Translations under genes and position numbers: made by a program | In this document: one piece after another, positions 38,421-47,477 of the stretch | How the letters are laid out: each line of letters starts with the position of its first letter | How positions within the stretch are numbered: the first letter of the stretch is position 1 | Notes under the pieces: model-generated | What the model saw: only the letters and a program-made list of their open reading frames with translations | Databases searched by the model: none | Told to the model about the DNA's origin: nothing | NCBI GenBank assembly: GCA_003555075.1 | Contig: PWHW01000004.1 | Coordinates: forward strand, 1 to 61,264 | Length of the DNA stretch: 61,264 bases | Source: Candidatus Nealsonbacteria bacterium | Lineage (GTDB): Bacteria; Patescibacteriota; Minisyncoccia; Minisyncoccales; PWPS01 | Direction of reading: 5' to 3'

Positions 38421-38903
38421 ATGAAAGAGAGTATTGAAAGATCCATTTTTTGGGTAGGCTTTGTGGCAGAGGAGAATTTATACAATGCTTTGGAGCAGAT
38501 CAAAGAATTTGCCAAAGAGGACAATAATGCTCCCATCAAGCTTTTTATCACTAGCTCGGGAGGGGCATTGGAGCCGGCAATAGCATTGTATGATTTTATC
38601 GTCATGACAGGCATTGAGCTACATACGATAGTAATAGGCGAAGCCGACTCAGCTGCTATTGTTCTTTTGGCTGCCGGGAAAAAGCGCTCAATGGGTCCCA
38701 ATTCCAGAATGGGACTTCACAAAGGAAAAGTGCTTGAAGGAGGCGAAGCTTTCGAAACAGAGAATGCAGAACGAGAAAGATATCTTCAGATACTCTCAAA
38801 AGCAAGCTCTACTTCTTTTGAGGAGTGGAAAGAGTTTTTAAAAGAAGAGAAAGAGGTGGATCCTCAGGAAGCTTTTCGTCTGGGGATCATAACAGAAGCT
38901 TAA
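38421..38903 (+). CDS. Divergent short ClpP-like protease
   Basis: IKLFITSSGG, ADSAA..LLAAG, R.MGPNSR.GLH, EAFRLGII. Confidence 0.75.
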   Translation: MKESIERSIFWVGFVAEENLYNALEQIKEFAKEDNNAPIKLFITSSGGALEPAIALYDFIVMTGIELHTIVIGEADSAAIVLLAAGKKRSMGPNSRMGLHKGKVLEGGEAFETENAERERYLQILSKASSTSFEEWKEFLKEEKEVDPQEAFRLGIITEA

Positions 38904-38994
38904 AGTCAAGGAAAACCCTTGACTTTTTTCTTTTTTTTGTTATAGTATAAACAGTTCTTTTGAAATCAAGATCATTCGAAAGGAGGTTAATCTC

Positions 38995-39345
38995 TTGGAA
39001 AAAGAGTGTCCAAGAGTAGAGGTTCTTATGTATTTGGATGGGGAGCTGGATGGCGAAGAAAAAGAAGACATCGAGAACCATCTCAAGGAATGTGAGACTT
39101 GCAAGGAGCATAAGGAATTTGCGGAAGCATTAAGTGTGATAATGCCCACTATTCTCGAGCCTCCAAAAGAGGATTGCCCTTCATCCCTCATCCTTTCCTT
39201 GTATGCCAACGAATGTCTTGATAAGGAAACCAAAAGAAACGTTGATGCTCATATTCTTTATTGTGATGAGTGCTTCAAGGAGCTGCTTGTTTTCGAGAAA
39301 ATAGAAGAAGAGCTTAGGTCCGAAGGGCGATTCAAAGAAGAGTAG
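38995..39345 (+). CDS. Soluble protein with two tandem zf-HC2 (ZAS anti-sigma) zinc fingers
   Basis: YLDGEL..EE..IENHLKECETC and LYAN..L..ET...VDAHILYCDEC. Confidence 0.8.
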   Translation: MEKECPRVEVLMYLDGELDGEEKEDIENHLKECETCKEHKEFAEALSVIMPTILEPPKEDCPSSLILSLYANECLDKETKRNVDAHILYCDECFKELLVFEKIEEELRSEGRFKEE

Positions 39346-39390: not shown

Positions 39391-39567
39391 TTGTTTATAA
39401 GAAGAAAAGAAACACGTAATTGTCCGAGATGTCACACGAAGTTCAATCCCAGAACTTCGTACGGATGTCCAAGCTGCGGGAGAACTTTTAACGCTCAAAA
39501 AAGATCGATCTGCATGGCTTGCAATGGTCCTATAAGTTATACAGGTCATTGTGGATGTTCCCGCTGA
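39391..39567 (+). CDS. Cys-rich 58-aa double zinc-ribbon microprotein (not in the ORF track)
   Basis: Manual translation after an AAAGGGGGG RBS: MFIRRKETRNCPRCHTKFNPRTSYGCPSCGRTFNAQKRSICMACNGPISYTGHCGCSR*. A terminator follows. Confidence 0.7.
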   Translation: MFIRRKETRNCPRCHTKFNPRTSYGCPSCGRTFNAQKRSICMACNGPISYTGHCGCSR

Positions 39568-39572
39568 CATTT

Positions 39573-39600
39573 AAAGAGCTCTTTTAAGAGCTCTTTTTTC
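39573..39600 (+). terminator. Intrinsic terminator
   Basis: AAAGAGCTCTT-tt-AAGAGCTCTTT followed by a T-run. Confidence 0.7.
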
Positions 39601-39753
39601 TTTTTCAGGGGAACAGTTAAACAAAAGACCCTCAAAGATAACTTCTTGTGGAAAACTTTCAAAAAGAAAATAGTTTCTTGAATGAAAAGAATTATTGTCT
39701 CAATCCTTTTTTGCGGGGTAAGCGAATCGTGTCTCGAGGCGGACATTGGAGGG

Positions 39754-39782
39754 TTGACTTTTTGTTTCCATTTTGTTAGTAT
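39754..39782 (+). promoter_or_regulatory. Promoter of small RNA 1
   Basis: TTGACT-N17-TAGTAT with a TG extended -10. Confidence 0.65.
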
Positions 39783-39788
39783 TCAAAC

Positions 39789-39857
39789 TAATGAGTGCGT
39801 GAGTAAAGTTAGCTCCAATCGGCAAAAGACCTCACTCGAGCGAGGTCTTTTGCTTTC
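39789..39857 (+). ncRNA. Putative small RNA 1 (about 68 nt)
   Basis: Lies between a promoter and a 12-bp terminator (GCAAAAGACCTC/GAGGTCTTTTGC, 39822-39853). Its 5' half is complementary to the loop of RNA 2. Ends are approximate. Confidence 0.55.
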
Positions 39858-39918
39858 TGAAAAATTTTTAATATACACTTACTGGTTTTGGAAAAAAGAT
39901 TGTTGATCCCAAGAGGTG

Positions 39919-39946
39919 TTGACAGCCATTTTTCCTTTGCTAGAAT
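39919..39946 (+). promoter_or_regulatory. Promoter of small RNA 2 / murB leader
   Basis: TTGACA-N16-TAGAAT with a TG extended -10. Confidence 0.7.
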
Positions 39947-39952
39947 AGCATC

Positions 39953-40003
39953 GGGTCGGAAGGCACGCACTCAAGATTGGAGTTAACGCTTCCGGCCCTT
40001 TTT
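39953..40003 (+). ncRNA. Putative small RNA 2 or murB attenuator hairpin
   Basis: GGGUCGGAAG/CUUCCGGCCC 10-bp stem, 26-nt loop, followed by UUUUU. Confidence 0.55.
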
Positions 40004-40042
40004 ATATATAATACAAATACAGATTGATCAATCCTTATATCC

Positions 40043-40981
40043 ATGATAAAAGAGGATTTTTTAAGAAGAGTAGAAGAGGATGTTTCTCTGAGAGAATATA
40101 ACACGATGCGTGTAGAATGTAGTGCAAAGTTTTTTGTAAGGGCGAGTAATGTGGAAGATGTAGTAAGGGCAGTGAAGTGCTCCCAAGAAAAAGGACTTCC
40201 TTTTTTGATCATGGGAAAAGGAAGTAATATCATTTTACCCTCTGCCTATGAGGGTTTTGTTATTTTCATGGACATGAAGGAGTTATCCTTGTTTGAGGAG
40301 GATATGTTAAAAGTTAATTCCGAGGCAGGAGTCTTTTTGCCCGCTATGGCAAAAGAAGTTACCGAGAAGGGGGCTCACGGAATGGAGTGGGCGGGAGGAG
40401 TTCCCGGAACGGTAGGGGGAGCGATAAGAGGGAATGCCGGAGCTTTCGATTGCTTTATATCGGATTTCCTAAAAGAAGTTACAGCTTTGAACATAGAAGA
40501 GGATTTCAAAAAGGAGGTCTTTAAGAAAGAAGAATGTTTTTTCGATTATAGAAACAGTTTCTTCAAGAGAAATAATAATTACATTATTCTTTCCGCAAGC
40601 ATGGAATTTCCTTTTAAGAAAGGAGTTGATGACAAGTTCAAGGAATACTTGAGATACAGGAGGGAAAATCATCCCTTGGAACCTTCCGCGGGAAGTATAT
40701 TTAAAAATCCTTCCGTAAAAGAAGAGTTCTATTTAAAGCATCCGGAAATGGAGAAATTCAGAGATCTTGGTTTTATTCCGGCAAGGGTGCTTATAGAAGA
40801 GTGCGGATTAAAAGGAGCTAACAGAGGAGGTGCGCAGATCTCGGAAAAGCATCCCAATTTTATAATAAATAAAAACGGAGCCAGAGGAGAGGATGTAAAA
40901 AAGCTTATAGAATTGGCAAAAGAAGAGGTAAAGAAGAAATTTTTCATAGAAATGAAAGAGGAAGTTACGATAGTAAAATGA
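40043..40981 (+). CDS. murB: UDP-N-acetylmuramate dehydrogenase
   Basis: GKGSNI, GVPGTVGGAIRGNAGA, YRNSFFK, PSAGSIFKNP, ISEKHPNFIIN. Confidence 0.95.
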   Translation: MIKEDFLRRVEEDVSLREYNTMRVECSAKFFVRASNVEDVVRAVKCSQEKGLPFLIMGKGSNIILPSAYEGFVIFMDMKELSLFEEDMLKVNSEAGVFLPAMAKEVTEKGAHGMEWAGGVPGTVGGAIRGNAGAFDCFISDFLKEVTALNIEEDFKKEVFKKEECFFDYRNSFFKRNNNYIILSASMEFPFKKGVDDKFKEYLRYRRENHPLEPSAGSIFKNPSVKEEFYLKHPEMEKFRDLGFIPARVLIEECGLKGANRGGAQISEKHPNFIINKNGARGEDVKKLIELAKEEVKKKFFIEMKEEVTIVK

Positions 40982-41049
40982 AGCTTTAAATAAACCATTA
41001 ATTTTGTTATAATAAAAAGCACTTATTAGTTTAATGATATTGAAAAAAT

Positions 41050-41442
41050 ATGGAGGTGATCATTAAATCTCGTAACATTGAGCTTACACCACACTTAAAA
41101 GATTATGCGGAAAAGAAACTTCGTTCTGCTTGCCGTTTTGTACCGAGTATCCTGGAAAAGGAAATGGAGGACAAAGAAGAGGTTGGGAAAGAAGTTGATA
41201 GAATAGTTCTTCAAGTGGAGATTGAGAAGGTCACCGGAGAGGAAAAGGGAAGAATATTCCGCACGGAGGCGCAAATGATTATTCCCGGAAGAACGATAAA
41301 AGCGGAGGATACCGCGGAGACCATTAAAGCTTCGGTGGATGAAGTGAAGTATGAGCTAGAGAGGCAAATAAAAGAACATAAGGACAAAATGGAGACAATG
41401 AAGAAAAAGGGAGGGCAAGAAGCGAAAAGAAAACGGGGATGA
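41050..41442 (+). CDS. hpf: Ribosome hibernation promoting factor (HPF/RaiA, short form)
   Basis: IKSRNIELTPHLKDYAEKKL...SVDEVKYELERQIKEHK. Confidence 0.88.
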   Translation: MEVIIKSRNIELTPHLKDYAEKKLRSACRFVPSILEKEMEDKEEVGKEVDRIVLQVEIEKVTGEEKGRIFRTEAQMIIPGRTIKAEDTAETIKASVDEVKYELERQIKEHKDKMETMKKKGGQEAKRKRG

Positions 41443-41584
41443 CCGCAACTTTTGTTTCCATTATCGATTTCAATTTGCCTAAGCCGGAAAGGACGGCAAG
41501 GTTGGAATGTTTGGGGTTTTTCCATTAAAGATGAAGGGCCTCAAGGAAGCAATGAGATTATTCAGGAATAAATGAAAAGTTATC

Positions 41585-44098
41585 GTGTCTTTTTTTCAGA
41601 AGATTTTCGGTGATCCGAATCAAAAATATATAAAATCTATAGAACCTCTTGTCTCGAAGATAAATGAGATCGAAGAGAGCACAAAAGAGCTTTCGGATGA
41701 AGAAATGAGGGAGAGGTCATTGAAGCTTCGTGAAAGGTCTCAAGAAGAATCGCCAGATGATCTTTTGCCGGAGGCTTATGCTTTGGTACGGGAGGCAGCA
41801 AAGAGAACTTTGGATCAGAGACATTATGATGTCCAGTTAATGGGAGGTATTGCGCTTCACCAAGGAAGAACTTCCGAAATGAAAACCGGAGAAGGGAAAA
41901 CTCTTGTAGCTACTTTACCTGCTTATCTGAACTCTCTTCCCGGAAAAGGGGTTCATGTGGTGACGGTGAACGATTATTTGGCAAGAAGGGATACAGTATG
42001 GATGGGGCAGATTTACCATTTCCTGGGTCTTTCGGTAGCCTGCATAAATGACAGGCAGTCCTTTATATATGATCCTGATTATAAGTCGGGCGAGGAGCAG
42101 AAAGATGATGCGCGAGACGCCTTGGGCTCTTTTTATGTAGAAGAGGACTTTTTAAGACCCTGTGAAAGGAAAGAAGCTTATGATGCCGATATCACTTATG
42201 GTACCAATAACCAGTTCGGATTTGACTATTTAAGAGACAATATGGCATTAAACCTCCATGACAGAGTTCAGCGAGGTTTCAATTATGCCATCATAGACGA
42301 GGTGGATTCCATATTAATAGATGAAGCAAGAACTCCTCTTATTATTTCGGTACCTGAAGAGGGTGAGGAATTTGAGGCAAAGAAGGGTATGTATAGGGAA
42401 TTTGCATCCCGTATTGTACCTCAACTCAATTCCGGGGAAGATTATGAGGTGCACGAAAAAGAGAAAGCCGTAACTCTTACCGATAAAGGAATAGAAAAAG
42501 TGGAGAAGCTTTTGGGAGTGGAGAACATATATGATGAAAGAGGAATGAACGCTGTGCACTATCTAGAGCAAACCTTGAAGGCACAAGCAAAACATCCGAA
42601 CACGGGAAAACCACTTTACGAGAGAGATGTGAATTATGTCGTGAAAGAAGGGGAGATTATAATAGTTGATGATTTCACAGGAAGGCTTATGCCCGGAAGA
42701 AGATGGTCTGGTGGTCTACACCAGGCAATCGAGGCAAAGGAGGGAGTGACCGTGAGACCCGAGTCAAATACGATGGCAAGCGTTACCTTTCAGAATCTTT
42801 TCAGAATGTATGAAAAAATATCCGGCATGACTGGTACAGCTACTACTTCCTCTGAAGAGCTTTTCAAAGTTTATGGAATGGAAGTGGTGGTCATCCCCAC
42901 GAATAAACCTCTTATCAGAAAATCGCTTCCCGATCTTGTGTACAAAACGGAAGATGCGAAATTCAGAGCGGTAGTAGAGGAGGTGAAAGGAAGAAGCGAG
43001 AAGGGGCAACCCGTGTTAATAGGGACTGTCTCCATTGAGAAAAATGAAGTTCTTTCCAAGATGCTTAAGCGTGCCGGAGTTCGTCATGAAGTGCTTAATG
43101 CCAAGAATCATGAAAAGGAAGCGGAAATTATTGCGCAAGCGGGAAGATTGGGGGCGGTAACAGTGGCAACCAACATGGCCGGAAGGGGAGTGGATATAGT
43201 TTTGGGAGGAAATCCTCCAGATAAAGAAGAGGCAAGAAAGGTCAGAGAGCTTGGAGGACTTTTTGTTTTGGGAACCGAAAGACATGAGGCGCGCAGAATA
43301 GATGACCAGCTTCGCGGAAGATGTGGAAGGCAAGGAGATCCCGGGGAAAGTCAATTCTTCGTATCACTGGAGGACGATCTTATGAGGATATTTGGAGCGG
43401 AAAGAGTCCAAGCTCTCATGGAGAGATTCAATCTTCCCGATGATGCTCCTATCGATATAGGATATGTCTCAGGTATAATAGAGTCAGCGCAAAAGAAGGT
43501 AGAAGGACATCATTTTGATGCGCGTAAACATATATTACAATATGACGAAGTTCTTTTTAAGCATCGTGAGAAATTCTATCAACTACGAGACGAGGTGCTA
43601 AAAAGAGCGGAAGTTAAAGAAAGAGAGTCGGAAGACGGCTTGCGCGCTTTCATTCTGGACATTTTGGAAAGACAAGGAAAAAGTAAAGAGGAGTATTACA
43701 AGAAAGAGGAAGAGCTTGAAGAGGAAGATCTATACAATATAGAAAGGATCGTGGTTCTTCGCACCATGGATTTTCTTTGGAAGGAGCACTTGACAATGAT
43801 GGATGAACTGAGAGAGGCTGTTCGTCTTCGTGCTTATGGGCAAAAGGACCCCCTCATGGAATACAAGAGAGAGGGGCATAAGGCATTCAAGGATCTTATG
43901 GCTACCATAGATGCGGAGATCGCCGATAGGATCTTGAGGGTGAAAAGCGCCAAGAGTACTTCAAGTGGGGTGCGGAGATTCGTTGTAACAAGGAATAAAG
44001 CCTCTTATGGAGGTAAAGAGCAATACAAGAATGTGGGAAGAAACGATTCTTGCCCTTGTGGAAGCGGGAAAAAGTATAAGAAATGCCATGGTGCGTAA
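41585..44098 (+). CDS. secA: Preprotein translocase ATPase SecA with a SEC-C motif
   Basis: EMKTGEGKT, VVTVNDYLA, IIDEVDSILIDEARTP, GRCGRQGDPG, GRNDSCPCGSGKKYKKCHG. Confidence 0.98.
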   Translation: MSFFQKIFGDPNQKYIKSIEPLVSKINEIEESTKELSDEEMRERSLKLRERSQEESPDDLLPEAYALVREAAKRTLDQRHYDVQLMGGIALHQGRTSEMKTGEGKTLVATLPAYLNSLPGKGVHVVTVNDYLARRDTVWMGQIYHFLGLSVACINDRQSFIYDPDYKSGEEQKDDARDALGSFYVEEDFLRPCERKEAYDADITYGTNNQFGFDYLRDNMALNLHDRVQRGFNYAIIDEVDSILIDEARTPLIISVPEEGEEFEAKKGMYREFASRIVPQLNSGEDYEVHEKEKAVTLTDKGIEKVEKLLGVENIYDERGMNAVHYLEQTLKAQAKHPNTGKPLYERDVNYVVKEGEIIIVDDFTGRLMPGRRWSGGLHQAIEAKEGVTVRPESNTMASVTFQNLFRMYEKISGMTGTATTSSEELFKVYGMEVVVIPTNKPLIRKSLPDLVYKTEDAKFRAVVEEVKGRSEKGQPVLIGTVSIEKNEVLSKMLKRAGVRHEVLNAKNHEKEAEIIAQAGRLGAVTVATNMAGRGVDIVLGGNPPDKEEARKVRELGGLFVLGTERHEARRIDDQLRGRCGRQGDPGESQFFVSLEDDLMRIFGAERVQALMERFNLPDDAPIDIGYVSGIIESAQKKVEGHHFDARKHILQYDEVLFKHREKFYQLRDEVLKRAEVKERESEDGLRAFILDILERQGKSKEEYYKKEEELEEEDLYNIERIVVLRTMDFLWKEHLTMMDELREAVRLRAYGQKDPLMEYKREGHKAFKDLMATIDAEIADRILRVKSAKSTSSGVRRFVVTRNKASYGGKEQYKNVGRNDSCPCGSGKKYKKCHGA

Positions 44099-44135
44099 AA
44101 GGCGATTTTTCTTGACAAAATAAGGATAAAGTGTC

Positions 44136-45551
44136 ATGCTATCCAACATGAAAATAAACAGTCTGTCGCTATATTTACTTATATTGCTTGTTATATTTAC
44201 TTACGTTTTTGTATTCCCCGCTCATTTCAATCGGGGAATTGACGTTGTAAATAAGAATACGGGCCTCTCTCTTCCCAAAATAGAGGAGCGTGGCTTTACG
44301 GAGGGTCTTGAGTTGCAAGGAGGAGCTTATTTATTGTATGAAGCGGATCTTGAAAAGATTCCTCGGGGAGAGCGCCCGCAAAGAATGGAAGGGCTCAGGG
44401 ATATTATTGAAAGAAGAGTGGATCTTTACGGGATAGCGGAGCATTCTGTGCAAGTGAGAGGAGAGAGGCTTGCCGTGGAGATTCCTGGGGCTCACGACCT
44501 AGAAGAAGCAATAGATATCATAGGAGAGACTCCCTTTTTGGACTTTAGGGAGATCTCTGAAGAACTTGTCAAAGAACAGGAGGAAAAATGGAAAGAGATA
44601 GAGGAGCATCTCGGAAAAAAGAAGTGGGAAATAGACAGAGAGGAATTGGTGGAATTGGAAGGAGAAGTGGAAGGATGGGAGATAGTGCTTCAAGAGCCTT
44701 ATGTAAAAACGGATCTTACGGGAGAGCACCTTGATAATGCGGGAGTGGTCGCTGACCCCGTAAGTCAAGATCCTGTCATTACTTTAGAGTTCAACGAAAA
44801 AGGGGAAAGGCTTTTTGCGGAGATAACTTCGCGGAACGTGGGGAAATCACTTGCCACCTTCCTTGACGGAGAAATTTTACAGGAAGCGACTGTTCAAGAA
44901 AAGATCACGGGCGGAAGAGCTCAGATTACGGGAGATTTTTCCATGGAAGAGGCTTATGAGATAGCAAGGGACCTTCGTATAGGGGCTCTTCCTGTTCCCA
45001 TAGAACTTGTAACTCAAAGAAGCATTGGACCCACTCTGGGAGAAGATGCTTTGGATAACTCCATACAAGCGGGCATATATGGATTTCTTTTGGTGGCTCT
45101 TTTCATGATATTGGTTTATCGGTTACCCGGTCTTGCCTCTGTTATATCTCTTGCCATTTATATGCTTCTTGTTGCTTTCCTTTTGAAATATATTCCGGTA
45201 ACCATCACTCTATCCGGAATGGCTGGTTTTCTTTTGTCGGTAGGAATGGCCATTGATGCGAACATACTTGTTCTCTCACGCATGAGAGAGGAAATGAAAA
45301 AAGGAAAAACAATAGGAGAGAGCATAGAAGAGGGATACTTGAAAGCTTGGTCGTCCATAAGGGATGGCAATTTTACCACCCTCATGGTTGCTATCATCCT
45401 TTTCTTTATTACTACCAGCTTTGTAAGAGGATTTGCCATCACCTTGATACTGGGTATTGTAGTAAGCCTGTTTTGTGCCATGATAGTGAATCGCATATTA
45501 CTATCCTTTTTTAACGATAAAATGTCAAAAGCAAGAAAATTGTGGACATAA
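44136..45551 (+). CDS. secD: Protein-export membrane protein SecD
   Basis: GLELQGG, IERRVD, LRIGALPVP, IGPTLG, GMAIDANIL, FVRGFA.TL. Confidence 0.95.
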   Translation: MLSNMKINSLSLYLLILLVIFTYVFVFPAHFNRGIDVVNKNTGLSLPKIEERGFTEGLELQGGAYLLYEADLEKIPRGERPQRMEGLRDIIERRVDLYGIAEHSVQVRGERLAVEIPGAHDLEEAIDIIGETPFLDFREISEELVKEQEEKWKEIEEHLGKKKWEIDREELVELEGEVEGWEIVLQEPYVKTDLTGEHLDNAGVVADPVSQDPVITLEFNEKGERLFAEITSRNVGKSLATFLDGEILQEATVQEKITGGRAQITGDFSMEEAYEIARDLRIGALPVPIELVTQRSIGPTLGEDALDNSIQAGIYGFLLVALFMILVYRLPGLASVISLAIYMLLVAFLLKYIPVTITLSGMAGFLLSVGMAIDANILVLSRMREEMKKGKTIGESIEEGYLKAWSSIRDGNFTTLMVAIILFFITTSFVRGFAITLILGIVVSLFCAMIVNRILLSFFNDKMSKARKLWT

Positions 45552-45556
45552 AGAAC

Positions 45557-46456
45557 ATGAATTTCGAATTTCTTAAACACAGAAAGATATATTATATAAT
45601 TTCTTCAATATTGGTGCTTGCAAGCATTGGTTTTTTGGTTGTTTTCGGAATAGTTCCCGGTATAGAATTCGCCGGAGGGAGTGTATTGGAAGTAGAATAC
45701 GAAGAACGTCCCTCTATGGAAAAAATATACGAGGATCTGAGAGGGGTCGGTATAAGAGAGGCTGATGTGCAACCTGTGGGAGAAGAAGGGCTGCTCATAA
45801 GGACGGAACGCACTGATGATGAGGTTTATGAGGAAGTAATGGGTGCATTGGAAGGTGCGGAAAGTAGAGATTTTGAGTCAATAGGAGCGCAAGTGGGAGA
45901 TGAGCTCAAAACGATGTCCCTTGTGGCTATTATTTTGGCATCCCTTCTTGTAATAATTTATATTGCTGTGAGTTTCAGGGATGACGATGGCTCGATAAGT
46001 TCCGGTAAATACGGAATAATTGCCACAGGAGTTGCATTTTTACATGATATGCTTATTGTCCTGGGAATCTTTTCGGTTCTTGGATATTTGTATGGAGTGC
46101 AAGTGACCATTCCCATTGCAGTTGCTCTTCTCACTACCTTGGGTTATTCCATTAACGACACAGTGGTCATTTTTGATCGGATTAGAGAGAATTTGATAAA
46201 TAGAAAGGAAAGAAACGAAAAGGTGGATTTGAAAGAAGTGGTAAATAATAGTTTGAACGAGACTTTTGGCAGATCGGTTGGCACATCCCTGACGACCTTG
46301 TTCATTCTTTTATCCCTTTTAATCTTGGGAGGAGCAACGATATTTTATTTCATTCTTGCTCTTATTTTTGGAATAATACTGGGAATGTACTCTTCCATCT
46401 TTCTTGCGGGTCCTTTAGTGCTTGACTGGAACAGTTTGACCAAAAAGGAAAAGTGA
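45557..46456 (+). CDS. secF: Protein-export membrane protein SecF
   Basis: GIEFAGG, HDMLI, LGYSINDTVVIFDRIREN, RSVGTSLTT, YSSIFLA. Confidence 0.95.
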   Translation: MNFEFLKHRKIYYIISSILVLASIGFLVVFGIVPGIEFAGGSVLEVEYEERPSMEKIYEDLRGVGIREADVQPVGEEGLLIRTERTDDEVYEEVMGALEGAESRDFESIGAQVGDELKTMSLVAIILASLLVIIYIAVSFRDDDGSISSGKYGIIATGVAFLHDMLIVLGIFSVLGYLYGVQVTIPIAVALLTTLGYSINDTVVIFDRIRENLINRKERNEKVDLKEVVNNSLNETFGRSVGTSLTTLFILLSLLILGGATIFYFILALIFGIILGMYSSIFLAGPLVLDWNSLTKKEK

Positions 46457-46499: not shown

Positions 46500-47477
46500 A
46501 TGTATACCATGTTTAATTACAAAGAAGCTTGTCGGGACATAATAAGCTCTTTACCCGAAAGAACCAAGGATATAGTTTCTCGAAGATTCGGACTTTTCGG
46601 GGGAGAAAAGGAAACCCTTGAATTCATAGGAAAGAACTATGGCGTTACAAGGGAAAGGGTTCGGCAAATTGAAAAAGACGGGGTGAGGCAGGCAAGAAAC
46701 AAATCGGAGCAATACTCCGATATTTTTAATTATTTTGAGAATAAACTAGAGGAGTTCGGCGGCTTGAAACGAGAAGATGTATTTTTGAACATATTGTCCT
46801 ACGAAAAAAATGACAAGAACTGCATAAATTTTCTTTTAAATATTAGCAATTCTCTTTATCGTTTTTCAGAAAATACTGAATTTCATGCTTTTTGGTTGAA
46901 GGATCAAAAAGTATTCTTTAGAGCCAATGAAGTGATAAATGAAGTAAAAAAAGAGTTGAAGAAAAAGAGGAAACTATTATCCGTGAAAGAACTCAGTGCT
47001 AAAAAGGATATTCCCGAAAAGACCATTGTTTCCTATTTGGAGATCTCAAAAAGGATAGTACAGAATGAAGAGGGTAATTTCGGTCTCTTCGAATGGCCGG
47101 AAATAAACCCAAGAGGCATCAAAGATAAGGCGTATCTTGTTCTCAAGAAGTTCGGAAAACCTCTTCACTTCAAAGAGATAGCTTCTCACCTTGGAGATGA
47201 TGCCAATCCACAGACCACTCATAATGAACTCATAAAGGACCCCTCTTTCGTTCTTGTGGGAAGAGGTGTTTATGCCCTTGCAGACTGGGGTTACTCCCCT
47301 GGAGAGGTAAAAGAAGTGATACGGGATATACTAAAGAAAGAAGGAGCTCTCCCGAAGAACGAGATCATAGACCGGGTATCAAAACAAAGAATAGTAAAGA
47401 AGAATACTGTTATACAGAATTTGAGCAATAAAAAGTATTTTGTAAGAACTCCAGATGGAAAATACACTATTGCCTAA
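46500..47477 (+). CDS. Sigma70 region-4 HTH plus C-terminal RNAP-delta/HARE-HTH-like protein
   Basis: RRFGL...TLEFIG..YGVTRERVRQIE; AYLVLKKFGKPLHF.EIA; HNELIKD..FVLVGRG.YAL..WGY. Confidence 0.82.
   Translation: MYTMFNYKEACRDIISSLPERTKDIVSRRFGLFGGEKETLEFIGKNYGVTRERVRQIEKDGVRQARNKSEQYSDIFNYFENKLEEFGGLKREDVFLNILSYEKNDKNCINFLLNISNSLYRFSENTEFHAFWLKDQKVFFRANEVINEVKKELKKKRKLLSVKELSAKKDIPEKTIVSYLEISKRIVQNEEGNFGLFEWPEINPRGIKDKAYLVLKKFGKPLHFKEIASHLGDDANPQTTHNELIKDPSFVLVGRGVYALADWGYSPGEVKEVIRDILKKEGALPKNEIIDRVSKQRIVKKNTVIQNLSNKKYFVRTPDGKYTIA

Follow-up and report, generated by a model that had tools for sequence, protein, structure and literature searches.

Two small RNA genes, here RNA1 and RNA2, lie directly upstream of the murB-hpf-secA-secDF genes of a Candidatus Nealsonbacteria bacterium, and comparison across relatives strongly supports that their products are small RNAs, transcribed independently of one another, which base-pair by way of two helices whose order is swapped. 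To our knowledge, almost nothing is known of the regulatory and structural RNAs of CPR/Patescibacteria. The pair would constitute a small-RNA module specific to the class and widely conserved in it, placed before genes that serve cell-wall synthesis, ribosome hibernation and secretion, and a clean natural case of two separately encoded RNAs that co-evolve, detectable from genomes alone. Known antisense and sRNA systems pair colinearly; recognition here would follow another principle, mutually circularly permuted hairpins exchanging both arms, and the motif could serve as an orthogonal RNA-RNA interaction.

The window, meaning the whole stretch of DNA that was analysed, comprises the 61,264 nt of contig PWHW01000004.1 (assembly GCA_003555075.1, forward strand). 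The parts that concern us are:

39754..39782, + strand: P1, promoter of RNA1 (TTGACT, 17 nt, TG-n-TAGTAT; promoter scan)
39789..39860, + strand: RNA1, ~70 nt, its ends predicted from promoter and terminator
39792..39801, + strand: block A at the 5' end of RNA1, partner of a' in RNA2
39802..39807, + strand: linker AGTAAA between blocks A and B
39808..39820, + strand: block B of RNA1, partner of b' in RNA2
39822..39853, + strand: T1, terminator hairpin of RNA1, with loop A-CUCGAG-C
39919..39946, + strand: P2, promoter of RNA2 (TTGACA, 16 nt, TG-n-TAGAAT; promoter scan)
39952..40003, + strand: RNA2, ~52 nt, made up of stem S, a 26-nt loop (39963-39988) and U5
39953..39962, + strand: 5' strand of stem S, GGGTCGGAAG
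39964..39973, + strand: block a' in the RNA2 loop
39975..39987, + strand: block b' in the RNA2 loop, with the near-invariant UUGGAGUUAAC
39989..39998, + strand: 3' strand of stem S, CTTCCGGCCC, with U5 (TTTTT) next at 39999-40003
39983..40012, + strand: possible weak promoter for murB (TTAACG, 18 nt, TATAAT); the 3' part of RNA2 overlaps it
40043..46456, + strand: downstream operon murB-hpf-secA-secD-secF (Pfam matches)
40043-40981, + strand: murB
41050-41442, + strand: hpf
41585-44098, + strand: secA
44136-45551, + strand: secD
45542-46456, + strand: secF

The first-pass annotation of this DNA had described two extended -10 promoters, each followed by a short unit ending in a hairpin and U-run, with murB-hpf-secA-secDF downstream, and all of these elements stand: TG precedes the -10 in both P1 and P2, T1 is an inverted repeat of 16+16 nt followed by a U-rich tail, stem S is a 10-bp helix that closes the loop and runs into U5, and Pfam matches identify the downstream genes. 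Models of the two units, R1 and R2, match the window at 39785-39859 (85.9 bits) and 39948-40005 (71.1 bits), and both units fold more stably than their shuffled counterparts (z = -3.2 and -3.9). The -10 of the possible weak murB promoter shows no conservation in aligned relatives.

Across related loci, P1 carries TTGACA (with at most one mismatch) 16-18 nt from the -10 in 89/90 cases and an extended TG -10 in 84/90, with about 6 nt between the end of its -10 and block A; the covarying 13-bp stem of T1 is followed by a U-run of at least 4 (4-7) in 89 of 92 loci. P2 is weaker than P1 across the order, with an extended -10, lying 6 nt upstream of stem S, in 53/93 loci and a good -35 in 15/93. Both RNAs thus appear, as sRNA genes would, to have a sigma-70-type promoter of their own at the 5' end. 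RNA1 likewise ends in a terminator, and RNA2 does so here (U5) and in the 36 of 75 co-oriented homologues in which a U-run of at least 4 follows stem S.

The complementarity of 10 and 13 bp in swapped order noted at first reading is exact in its positions. Block A, TGAGTGCGTG, is 100% complementary to a', CACGCACTCA, and block B, GTTAGCTCCAATC, pairs with b', GATTGGAGTTAAC, at 12 of 13 positions, the remaining one being G-U; the duplex energies in the window are -18.0 kcal/mol (A:a') and -19.3 kcal/mol (B:b'). On the evidence of the window by itself, a pair of such matches could be due to chance, and elsewhere in the genome sequences resembling one block turn up about as often as chance predicts, never both together. 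The pairing nevertheless exceeds chance because it is conserved and covaries in more than 90 other genomes. Cognate pairs are on average more stable than non-cognate ones, both for A:a' (-15.3 vs -13.2 kcal/mol; z = -12.6) and for B:b' (-14.65 vs -11.5 kcal/mol; z = -13.3), and in neither case was the cognate value reached by any of 2000 permutations. Covariation, which the first-pass annotation had suggested looking for in both helices, is present in relatives for each of them. In A:a', 9 of 12 pairs are changed on both sides, the observed score being reached in 0/500 shuffles; in B:b', counted over the well-aligned 3' sub-helix with the structure given by hand, 6 of 7 pairs are (0/500 shuffles). 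RNAalifold predicts no structure when block B is joined to b', the 5' part of B being shifted by indels. Among the compensatory changes, GUGAGUG/CACUCAC becomes GUGGGUG/CACCCAC, GUGAGCG/CGCUCAC or AUGAGUG/CACUCAU, and CUAAGUC/GACUUAG becomes CUAUGUG/CACAUAG, while in three loci (L069, L079 and L085) ACUC has changed to ACCC along with GAGU to GGGU on all four strands. The complementarity thus appears to be kept by compensatory evolution, as in a base-pairing sRNA and its target. Some genomes have the two genes on opposite strands or separated by as much as 1-2 kb, so the pairing must act in trans.

The same two helices (ACUC/GAGU and CUA/UAG in most genera) give each RNA, taken alone, a hairpin of its own, and the inner hairpin of RNA2 is a circular permutation of the 5' hairpin of RNA1; the block order is swapped because this permutation lets RNA1 take both arms of the RNA2 hairpin. 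Pairing with RNA1 is confined to the RNA2 loop and does not involve the strands of stem S, which is itself paired in 99% of cells of the alignment and shows compensatory changes at 10/10 pairs. Within RNA2, GGAGUUAAC and GCACUCAC are near-invariant, and the junction nucleotides AGCA (after the stem) and UAAC (before it) are unpaired and highly conserved. A small ORF in RNA2 was rejected, there being no start codon past GGAG. Most other genera have, at the position of the A-B linker, a variable hairpin X capped by GNRA or UUCG, whose length ranges from absent (0) to ~12 bp across relatives and which is therefore unlikely to dock as a GNRA tetraloop. In 75 of 92 loci a mismatch flanks a 6-nt palindrome in the T1 loop, and in three more the palindrome is off-centre; eight different palindromes occur, maintained by symmetric double changes, and they are found only in Minisyncoccales, the other orders having ordinary tetraloops.

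Both genes are single-copy. In 301 sampled genomes of the order Minisyncoccales ('Ca. Nealsonbacteria'), RNA1 occurs in 180 and RNA2 in 160, and they go together (both in 136, RNA1 only in 44, RNA2 only in 24, neither in 97; odds ratio 12.5). RNA2 is present in 122/351 genomes of the class, a group of ultra-small CPR/Parcubacteria, and in essentially none outside it, and in loci picked by RNA2 alone, RNA1 lies within 1.5 kb. The order RNA1, RNA2, murB holds in 91 of the 92 loci of the order, with differing genes upstream, and RNA1 is always upstream of murB in the same orientation. The two genes adjoin without overlapping and share a strand in 76-77 of 91-92 loci, in many genomes with just 16-21 nt between the R1 and R2 model matches; RNA2 is inverted relative to murB in 15/91 loci and lies 0.3-2 kb from RNA1 in some. 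Where the pair occurs in the class's other orders, it is followed by a gene for a secreted HExxH protein or an ABC1 kinase, or by hpf-secA, and in some lineages, including whole genera and families, murB is present and both RNAs are absent.

As the first-pass annotation had supposed, the RNAs belong to no known family: Rfam 15 covariance models give no match at gathering score over the whole window, and at 39700-40050, with E up to 10, only sub-threshold terminator-like matches (14-19 bits vs cut-offs of 45-100). Literature searches found nothing on these RNAs. SRP RNA was rejected on the grounds that no SRP model (RF00169, RF01854) matches the region and that the GGAA of RNA2 sits in a covarying stem. 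RF00169 is absent from this genome and found in 3/101 genomes of the order, an observation that prompted the idea of an SRP RNA replacement; this too was rejected, as the assembly is without any SRP54-type GTPase and some relatives have a canonical SRP RNA elsewhere. For tmRNA, including two-piece forms, ARAGORN gives no hit in the window and places a standard one-piece tmRNA on contig C7, and for 5S rRNA there is a 5S-like motif on contig C9 and no Rfam match in the region; both were rejected. Nor is this a cis-encoded antisense pair of the CopA/CopT type, the genes being adjacent, non-overlapping and mostly on the same strand.

It is quite plausible, if short of likely, that RNA1 serves as an antisense sRNA dedicated to RNA2, acting in trans on it as leader of the downstream operon. 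RNA1 and RNA2, separately transcribed, would form a specific heterodimer, RNA2 being either a structured leader or a short terminated transcript from P2, directly before murB-hpf-secA-secDF. Block A, the 5' terminus of RNA1, would pair with the 5' arm a' of the RNA2 inner hairpin and block B with its 3' arm b', yielding helices of ~10 and 13-16 bp above a stem S that stays closed, probably as a three- or four-way junction. The complex would alter P2 transcription or translation continuing downstream, or the RNAs would titrate each other, or both; the relevant element in this genome would be attenuation at stem S and U5, and in genomes whose start codon abuts the stem, leader structure or stability instead. 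Such effects on termination, translation or stability are what we infer from the signals, pairing, co-evolution and linkage read in the genomes.

Close precedents for this geometry include CopA-CopT of plasmid R1 and RNAI-RNAII of ColE1, plasmid copy-control antisense hairpins made from opposite strands of the same DNA, whose complementarity is automatic and colinear. As there, hairpins would recognize each other and exchange their upper stems while keeping the lower ones, and a four-way-junction complex is proposed to control the gene downstream of the target hairpin. Here, however, the RNAs come from neighbouring genes that mostly share a strand, co-evolution maintains their complementarity, the arms are swapped so that 5' block meets 5' block, and the pair is chromosomal and class-wide.

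The first-pass annotation had gone further, proposing that RNA1 is an antiterminator that opens the RNA2 terminator to allow transcription into murB. In the family of this genome and in many others, murB begins 5-25 nt past the stem, too close to accommodate a separate promoter, and must therefore be transcribed through RNA2 there, which favours some read-through control; the murB start is at most 25 nt from the stem in 45/75 co-oriented loci, of which 33 have no -10-like element, and within this genome's family U4-5 follows the stem and murB starts 5-44 nt past it. The role of RNA2 as a leader is also supported by the weakness of P2 relative to P1 and the closeness of murB to the stem, although nearness to the next ORF is weak evidence because intergenic distances are short in these genomes anyway. 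As a general function, antitermination is disfavoured: the pairing touches only the loop and leaves the covarying stem S intact, the U-run follows the stem in fewer than half of the co-oriented loci, RNA2 can be inverted, and the downstream gene is not murB in other orders. In countertranscript attenuation of pT181 and pIP501 and in T-box leaders, a trans RNA pairs with terminator or antiterminator strands to decide the outcome. The present locus resembles these systems in having a strong promoter and a leader hairpin with U-run before genes that may lack a promoter of their own, and T-boxes in particular in that the trans RNA would contact the leader at two sites in the same 5'-to-3' order (compare the anticodon and acceptor end of tRNA). 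It differs in that the terminator stem strands are untouched, half of the homologues have no U-run and RNA2 can be inverted.

Several observations speak against the antisense-leader reading as a whole. The pairing misses the stem strands, the Shine-Dalgarno sequence and the start codon, leaving no obvious switch, the U-run follows stem S in only 36/75 co-oriented loci, and RNA2 inversion, other downstream genes and murB without the RNAs all count against it as well. For these last three reasons RNA2 does not appear to be a 5' UTR element of murB in all members. In the inverted loci, murB has a TGnTAnAAT element of its own 5-8 nt upstream of the ATG, so RNA2 cannot be the murB leader there.

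The main rival to that reading is an obligate two-piece RNA, in which the heterodimer itself would be functional, for example as a protein-binding scaffold or active structured RNA, the position near murB reflecting inherited synteny rather than function; we regard this as a serious possibility, though a rather unlikely one. It would account for two single-copy genes that co-occur and co-evolve across the class and are retained whatever the RNA2 orientation or downstream gene, for the AGCA and UAAC nucleotides, conserved without a pairing reason, and for the palindromic T1 loops with their symmetric double changes. Yet the loss of the pair in whole genera and families marks it as non-essential, the variation of hairpin X speaks against a precise tertiary fold, the palindromes are a feature of this order alone, and the neighbouring genes offer no evident partner protein. 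Circularly permuted two-piece tmRNA offers a parallel in its permutation and in being a functional RNA of two base-paired transcripts, as proposed here, but RNA1 and RNA2 have no tRNA-like domain or tag frame, and one RNA permutes the other, whereas tmRNA is one gene split.

The T1 loops suggest a larger assembly, which we consider unlikely: in Minisyncoccales, arm-exchanged heterodimers would be joined by kissing T1 loops into (RNA1-RNA2)2, and this assembly would be the functional unit, its function unrelated to classical antisense control of a neighbour. With its self-complementary 6 nt, unpaired flanks and symmetric double substitutions, the loop (and the loop only) resembles the kissing loop of the HIV-1 dimerisation initiation site, and a dimer is putative. 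The T1 hairpin, unlike that site, is also a terminator and has its palindrome in one order, with tetraloops elsewhere; a DNA-level cause of the palindrome is conceivable too.

An sRNA with a sponge is improbable. One RNA would regulate other mRNAs in trans and the other would be a dedicated decoy setting its active level; for example, ACUCC of RNA1 resembles an anti-Shine-Dalgarno sequence and GGAGU of RNA2 a Shine-Dalgarno. Such a function would be independent of RNA2 orientation and downstream gene, and the near-invariance of GGAGUUAAC and GCACUCAC exceeds what pairing with the more variable block B would need. The four mutually pairing strands could, however, alone explain slow evolution, as the joint changes in L069, L079 and L085 indicate. 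RNA2 is also the sole site in this assembly, an incomplete MAG, where a'-like and b'-like blocks occur together; a genome-wide duplex scan, whose single-duplex energy cannot capture a two-block site, gave no outstanding extra target; and the murB start region, put to the same cognate test with the blocks, shows no co-evolution (z = +0.8 and -1.6). Known sponges, such as the chbBC spacer for ChiX, SroC for GcvB and RosA for RoxS, offer a single short colinear mimic of the target, are mostly encoded away from the sRNA gene, and their sRNAs have other mRNA targets. The present RNAs are like these in being separately made, with each other as main partner and mutual titration possible, and in the sRNA having its seed at the 5' end and an intrinsic terminator at the 3' end, but their ~23-26 bp are split over two helices, their genes are tightly linked, and no other target was found by assembly search, duplex scan or at the murB start.

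It is very improbable that RNA1 and RNA2 form a single cis-acting leader, that is one long murB 5' UTR continuing through T1 and folding into an intramolecular, riboswitch-like pseudoknot. The constant position of RNA1 upstream of and co-oriented with murB, the 16-21 nt spacing in many genomes and a P2 often lacking a -35 would fit, but the T1 hairpin is of the classic terminator type, 15 loci carry RNA2 on the other strand and others place it at a distance of 0.3-2 kb, and an extended -10 lies 6 nt ahead of stem S in 53/93.

That the blocks have no RNA function and are DNA-level inverted repeats (recombination or protein-binding sites, or duplication remnants) is scarcely credible: RNA2 has been inverted repeatedly in evolution and T1 is a nearly perfect DNA palindrome, but compensatory changes preserve pairing, not sequence, as do the G-U pairs, which are frequent in both intermolecular helices across relatives and so favour RNA pairing, conserved promoters and terminators are placed precisely around each unit, and the protein of the flanking murB gene (~50% identity within the genus) is much less conserved than either unit.

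The window holds two compact units between murB and an ORF for a 58-aa zinc-ribbon protein with its terminator. The features on which the analysis turns, together with the downstream genes, are as follows.

39754-39782, + strand: P1, predicted promoter of RNA1 (promoter scan), TTGACT-17-TAGTAT with TG upstream
39789-39860, + strand: RNA1 (unit 1, predicted length about 70 nt), with pairing blocks A (39792-39801) and B (39808-39820) and the terminator hairpin T1
39919-39946, + strand: P2, predicted promoter of RNA2 (promoter scan), near-perfect TTGACA-16-TAGAAT with TG
39952-40003, + strand: RNA2 (unit 2, about 52 nt), whose stem S closes a loop with blocks a' (39964-39973) and b' (39975-39987)
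3' of RNA2: murB, hpf, secA, secD and secF

Downstream of P1 lie about 30 unstructured nt, a 16+16 nt inverted repeat (39822-39853) and a U-rich tail, and downstream of P2 a 10-bp stem (39953-39962 with 39989-39998), a 26-nt loop and U5; in both units the fold is more stable than in shuffled controls (z = -3.2 for unit 1 and -3.9 for unit 2). The block-swapped complementarity described in the first-pass annotation was reproduced exactly, A matching a' at 10/10 positions and B matching b' at 12/13 plus one G-U, with duplex energies of -18.0 and -19.3 kcal/mol, respectively. That it recognised no known RNA in them was likewise borne out, as a search of the whole window against Rfam gave no match at gathering scores, and the RNA1/RNA2 region itself gave weak terminator-like hits only. 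With ARAGORN the window yielded neither a tRNA nor a tmRNA, a normal tmRNA being present on a different contig of the assembly, and full-text literature searches returned nothing on these RNAs.

Comparison across related genomes shows that the pairing between RNA1 and RNA2 is genuine and has evolved in the way RNA helices do, with covariation in both intermolecular helices. When RNA1/RNA2 duplexes were computed for all combinations of genomes, cognate pairs were more stable than non-cognate ones for helix A (mean -15.3 versus -13.2 kcal/mol, z = -12.6) and for helix B (-14.65 versus -11.5 kcal/mol, z = -13.3), with 0/2000 permutations reaching the cognate value in either case; the covariation tests do not model phylogeny as R-scape does, and shared ancestry is addressed by the cognate/non-cognate design and a negative control. 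That control, either RNA against the murB start region, was negative (z = +0.8 and -1.6), and therefore shared ancestry alone does not yield the cognate signal. Pair counts agree. In a gap-free alignment of A/a', both sides change in 9/12 pairs; 40 cells are doubly changed, where shuffles give 17.8 +/- 3.1 (0/500), and all slid registers collapse. For B:b', both sides change in 6/7 pairs of the 3' sub-helix formed by CUAAGUC and GACUUAG, the 21 doubly changed cells comparing with 4.4 +/- 1.8 in shuffles (0/500). Compensatory variants include, for A:a', GUGAGUG/CACUCAC changed to GUGGGUG/CACCCAC, GUGAGCG/CGCUCAC or AUGAGUG/CACUCAU, and, for B:b', CUAAGUC/GACUUAG changed to CUAUGUG/CACAUAG or GGUUAAAU/AUUUAACC. 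Within RNA2, stem S has compensatory changes at 10/10 pairs.

A DNA search in 40 relatives recovered both units at 72-96% identity, the neighbouring MurB protein being just about 50% identical within the genus, and covariance models derived from them detected RNA1 in 180 of the 301 genomes sampled from the order Minisyncoccales and RNA2 in 160, nearly always in single copy. The two co-occur (both in 136 genomes, RNA1 only in 44, RNA2 only in 24, neither in 97; odds ratio 12.5), and several genomes with one RNA only proved to carry a diverged partner. With a broader RNA2 model, 122/351 genomes of the class were positive, 108 of them outside the order, where 15 of 20 examined loci had an RNA1-like partner within 1.3 kb of RNA2; outside the class, a 351-genome sample of the phylum gave a single weak match only. 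Since some lineages, including another genus of the window's family, keep murB with neither RNA present, the pair is not essential.

In most genera RNA1 reads 5'-(U)AGUGAGUG, hairpin X, ACUCC-nn-CUAAGUC and T1, and RNA2 is longer than in the window (66-69 nt), stem S closing the loop nAGCACUCAC-UAA-AGACUUAG-nnnn-GGAGU-UAAC. Hairpin X reaches about 12 bp in some genomes and is missing in others, and its cap is mostly a GNRA or UUCG loop; in the window's genus it has shrunk to AGUAAA, the inner hairpin of RNA2 is shorter by 8 nt, and helix B:b' is shifted and takes in UUAAC beside the stem. The same two short helices, ACUC/GAGU and CUA(A)/(U)UAG, can build a hairpin within either RNA alone, with the strand order UAG-U-GAGU, loop X, ACUC-nn-CUA in RNA1 and ACUC-A-CUAA, loop, UUAG-nnnn-GAGU in RNA2. 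Relative to the 5' hairpin of RNA1, the inner hairpin of RNA2 is thus circularly permuted, so that the two 5' arms are complementary to each other. The joint change of all four strands in three genomes, L069, L079 and L085 (ACUC to ACCC and GAGU to GGGU) fits a system where intramolecular and intermolecular pairings both matter. As the helices between the two RNAs (about 10 bp and 13-16 bp) greatly exceed those within each RNA (about 4+4 bp) in strength, RNA1 would invade both arms of the RNA2 inner hairpin and leave stem S intact, and the predicted outcome is a junction in which S, A:a', X and B:b' meet.

The order RNA1, RNA2, murB holds in 91/92 loci from many families, with RNA1 always co-oriented with murB, and the genes upstream of RNA1 are not conserved. 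RNA2 is co-oriented with murB in 76 loci and inverted in 15, across at least eight families (L034, L047, L048, L054, L057, L062, L064, L068, L070, L081, L089, L094, L099, L103 and L109); the inverted gene is flipped in place with its promoter, convergent with RNA1 and 1-33 nt from the RNA1 terminator. Among the co-oriented loci, 45/75 place the murB start no more than 25 nt from stem S, and a -10-like element is lacking in 33 of these 45, so there, as in most of the window's family, murB must be transcribed through RNA2; a U-run of at least 4 follows stem S in just 36/75. At inverted loci a TGnTAnAAT box belonging to murB itself usually lies 5-8 nt ahead of the ATG. Such an extended -10, with no Shine-Dalgarno, precedes many murB genes of the order (L034, L054, L064, L081, L099 and L109 among others, and also L003, L035, L043, L072 and L105), and its position suggests leaderless murB mRNAs. 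In other orders the gene after RNA2 encodes a secreted HExxH protein without a Pfam match or an ABC1-type kinase, or is hpf-secA or murB; in L157, L162, L163, L164 and L173 it codes for a conserved secreted protein that exceeds 420 aa and carries the motif HEFQHL. Overall, RNA2 appears often to serve as a leader, yet the pair is not bound to murB in particular.

By its sequence, RNA1 resembles a classical sRNA: its promoter could hardly be stronger, one pairing block stands right at its 5' end, and its terminator is strong. P1 matches the consensus in 89/90 loci, with an extended -10 in 84, and is placed to start the predicted transcript at block A; T1 is followed by a U-run of at least 4 in 89/92. 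RNA2 is more like a leader, or a short terminated transcript, with a weaker promoter (across the order, P2 has an extended -10 in 53/93 loci and a good -35 in 15/93), a variable U-run and the next ORF abutting. The most economical reading, which we favour tentatively, makes RNA1 a dedicated antisense RNA that controls the RNA2 leader and thereby the downstream operon. Its weak points are that the pairing involves neither the stem strands nor a ribosome-binding site or the start codon, that RNA2 can be inverted, and that the pair is found before differing genes. The first-pass proposal that RNA1 is an antiterminator of unit 2 is unsupported as a general mechanism and may hold in the window's family, with its strong P2, stem S followed by U4-5 and murB without a promoter of its own.

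The main rival, a possibility we consider doubtful, is that the RNA1-RNA2 heterodimer is itself the functional unit. In its favour, 75/92 loci have in the T1 loop a palindrome of 6 nt with a flanking mismatch, and 3 more have one off-centre, which is the sequence signature of a kissing-loop homodimer; however, this palindrome is confined to Minisyncoccales and may have a DNA-level cause. Eight versions occur (CUCGAG, CUUAAG, CUAUAG, CUGCAG, CAUAUG, CCUAGG, CCAUGG and AUUAAU); in the window's T1 (39822-39853) and its homologues CUCGAG prevails, the palindrome changes by symmetric double substitutions and the flanking mismatch is conserved. A sponge relationship, with the further targets that it implies, is rather unlikely. 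That the two units form a single long cis leader is very improbable: in some genomes 0.3-2 kb separate their genes, or the genes occupy opposite strands, which requires the pairing to act in trans in those genomes at least. DNA-level repeats are scarcely credible, because they would not tolerate G-U, and many pair positions switch to or from G-U, which speaks for RNA pairing.

The assembly is a MAG (0.61 Mb, 12 contigs, about 40% G+C) without 16S or 23S rRNA genes, and its absences need caution. Bacterial SRP RNA (RF00169) and an SRP54-type GTPase domain (Ffh/FtsY, PF00448) were not found in it, secA and secDF being present; given the missing rRNA genes too, this may be a binning gap and not a real loss. 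RF00169 was detected in only 3/101 genomes of the order; in one of these the SRP RNA is of the large type and lies on a small contig. As for the neighbours of the pair, the 58-aa ORF (39391-39567, + strand), which adjoins RNA1 upstream and is not kept there in other genera, has eight cysteines, weak zinc-ribbon Pfam matches and its own terminator (39573-39596). Upstream of it (38421-39345, + strand) are encoded a short ClpP-like protein (160 aa) and then a zf-HC2 (anti-sigma-type) protein, and directly 3' of secF (46500-47477, + strand) lies the gene for a 325-aa protein with a sigma-70 region 4 domain and a HARE-HTH domain.
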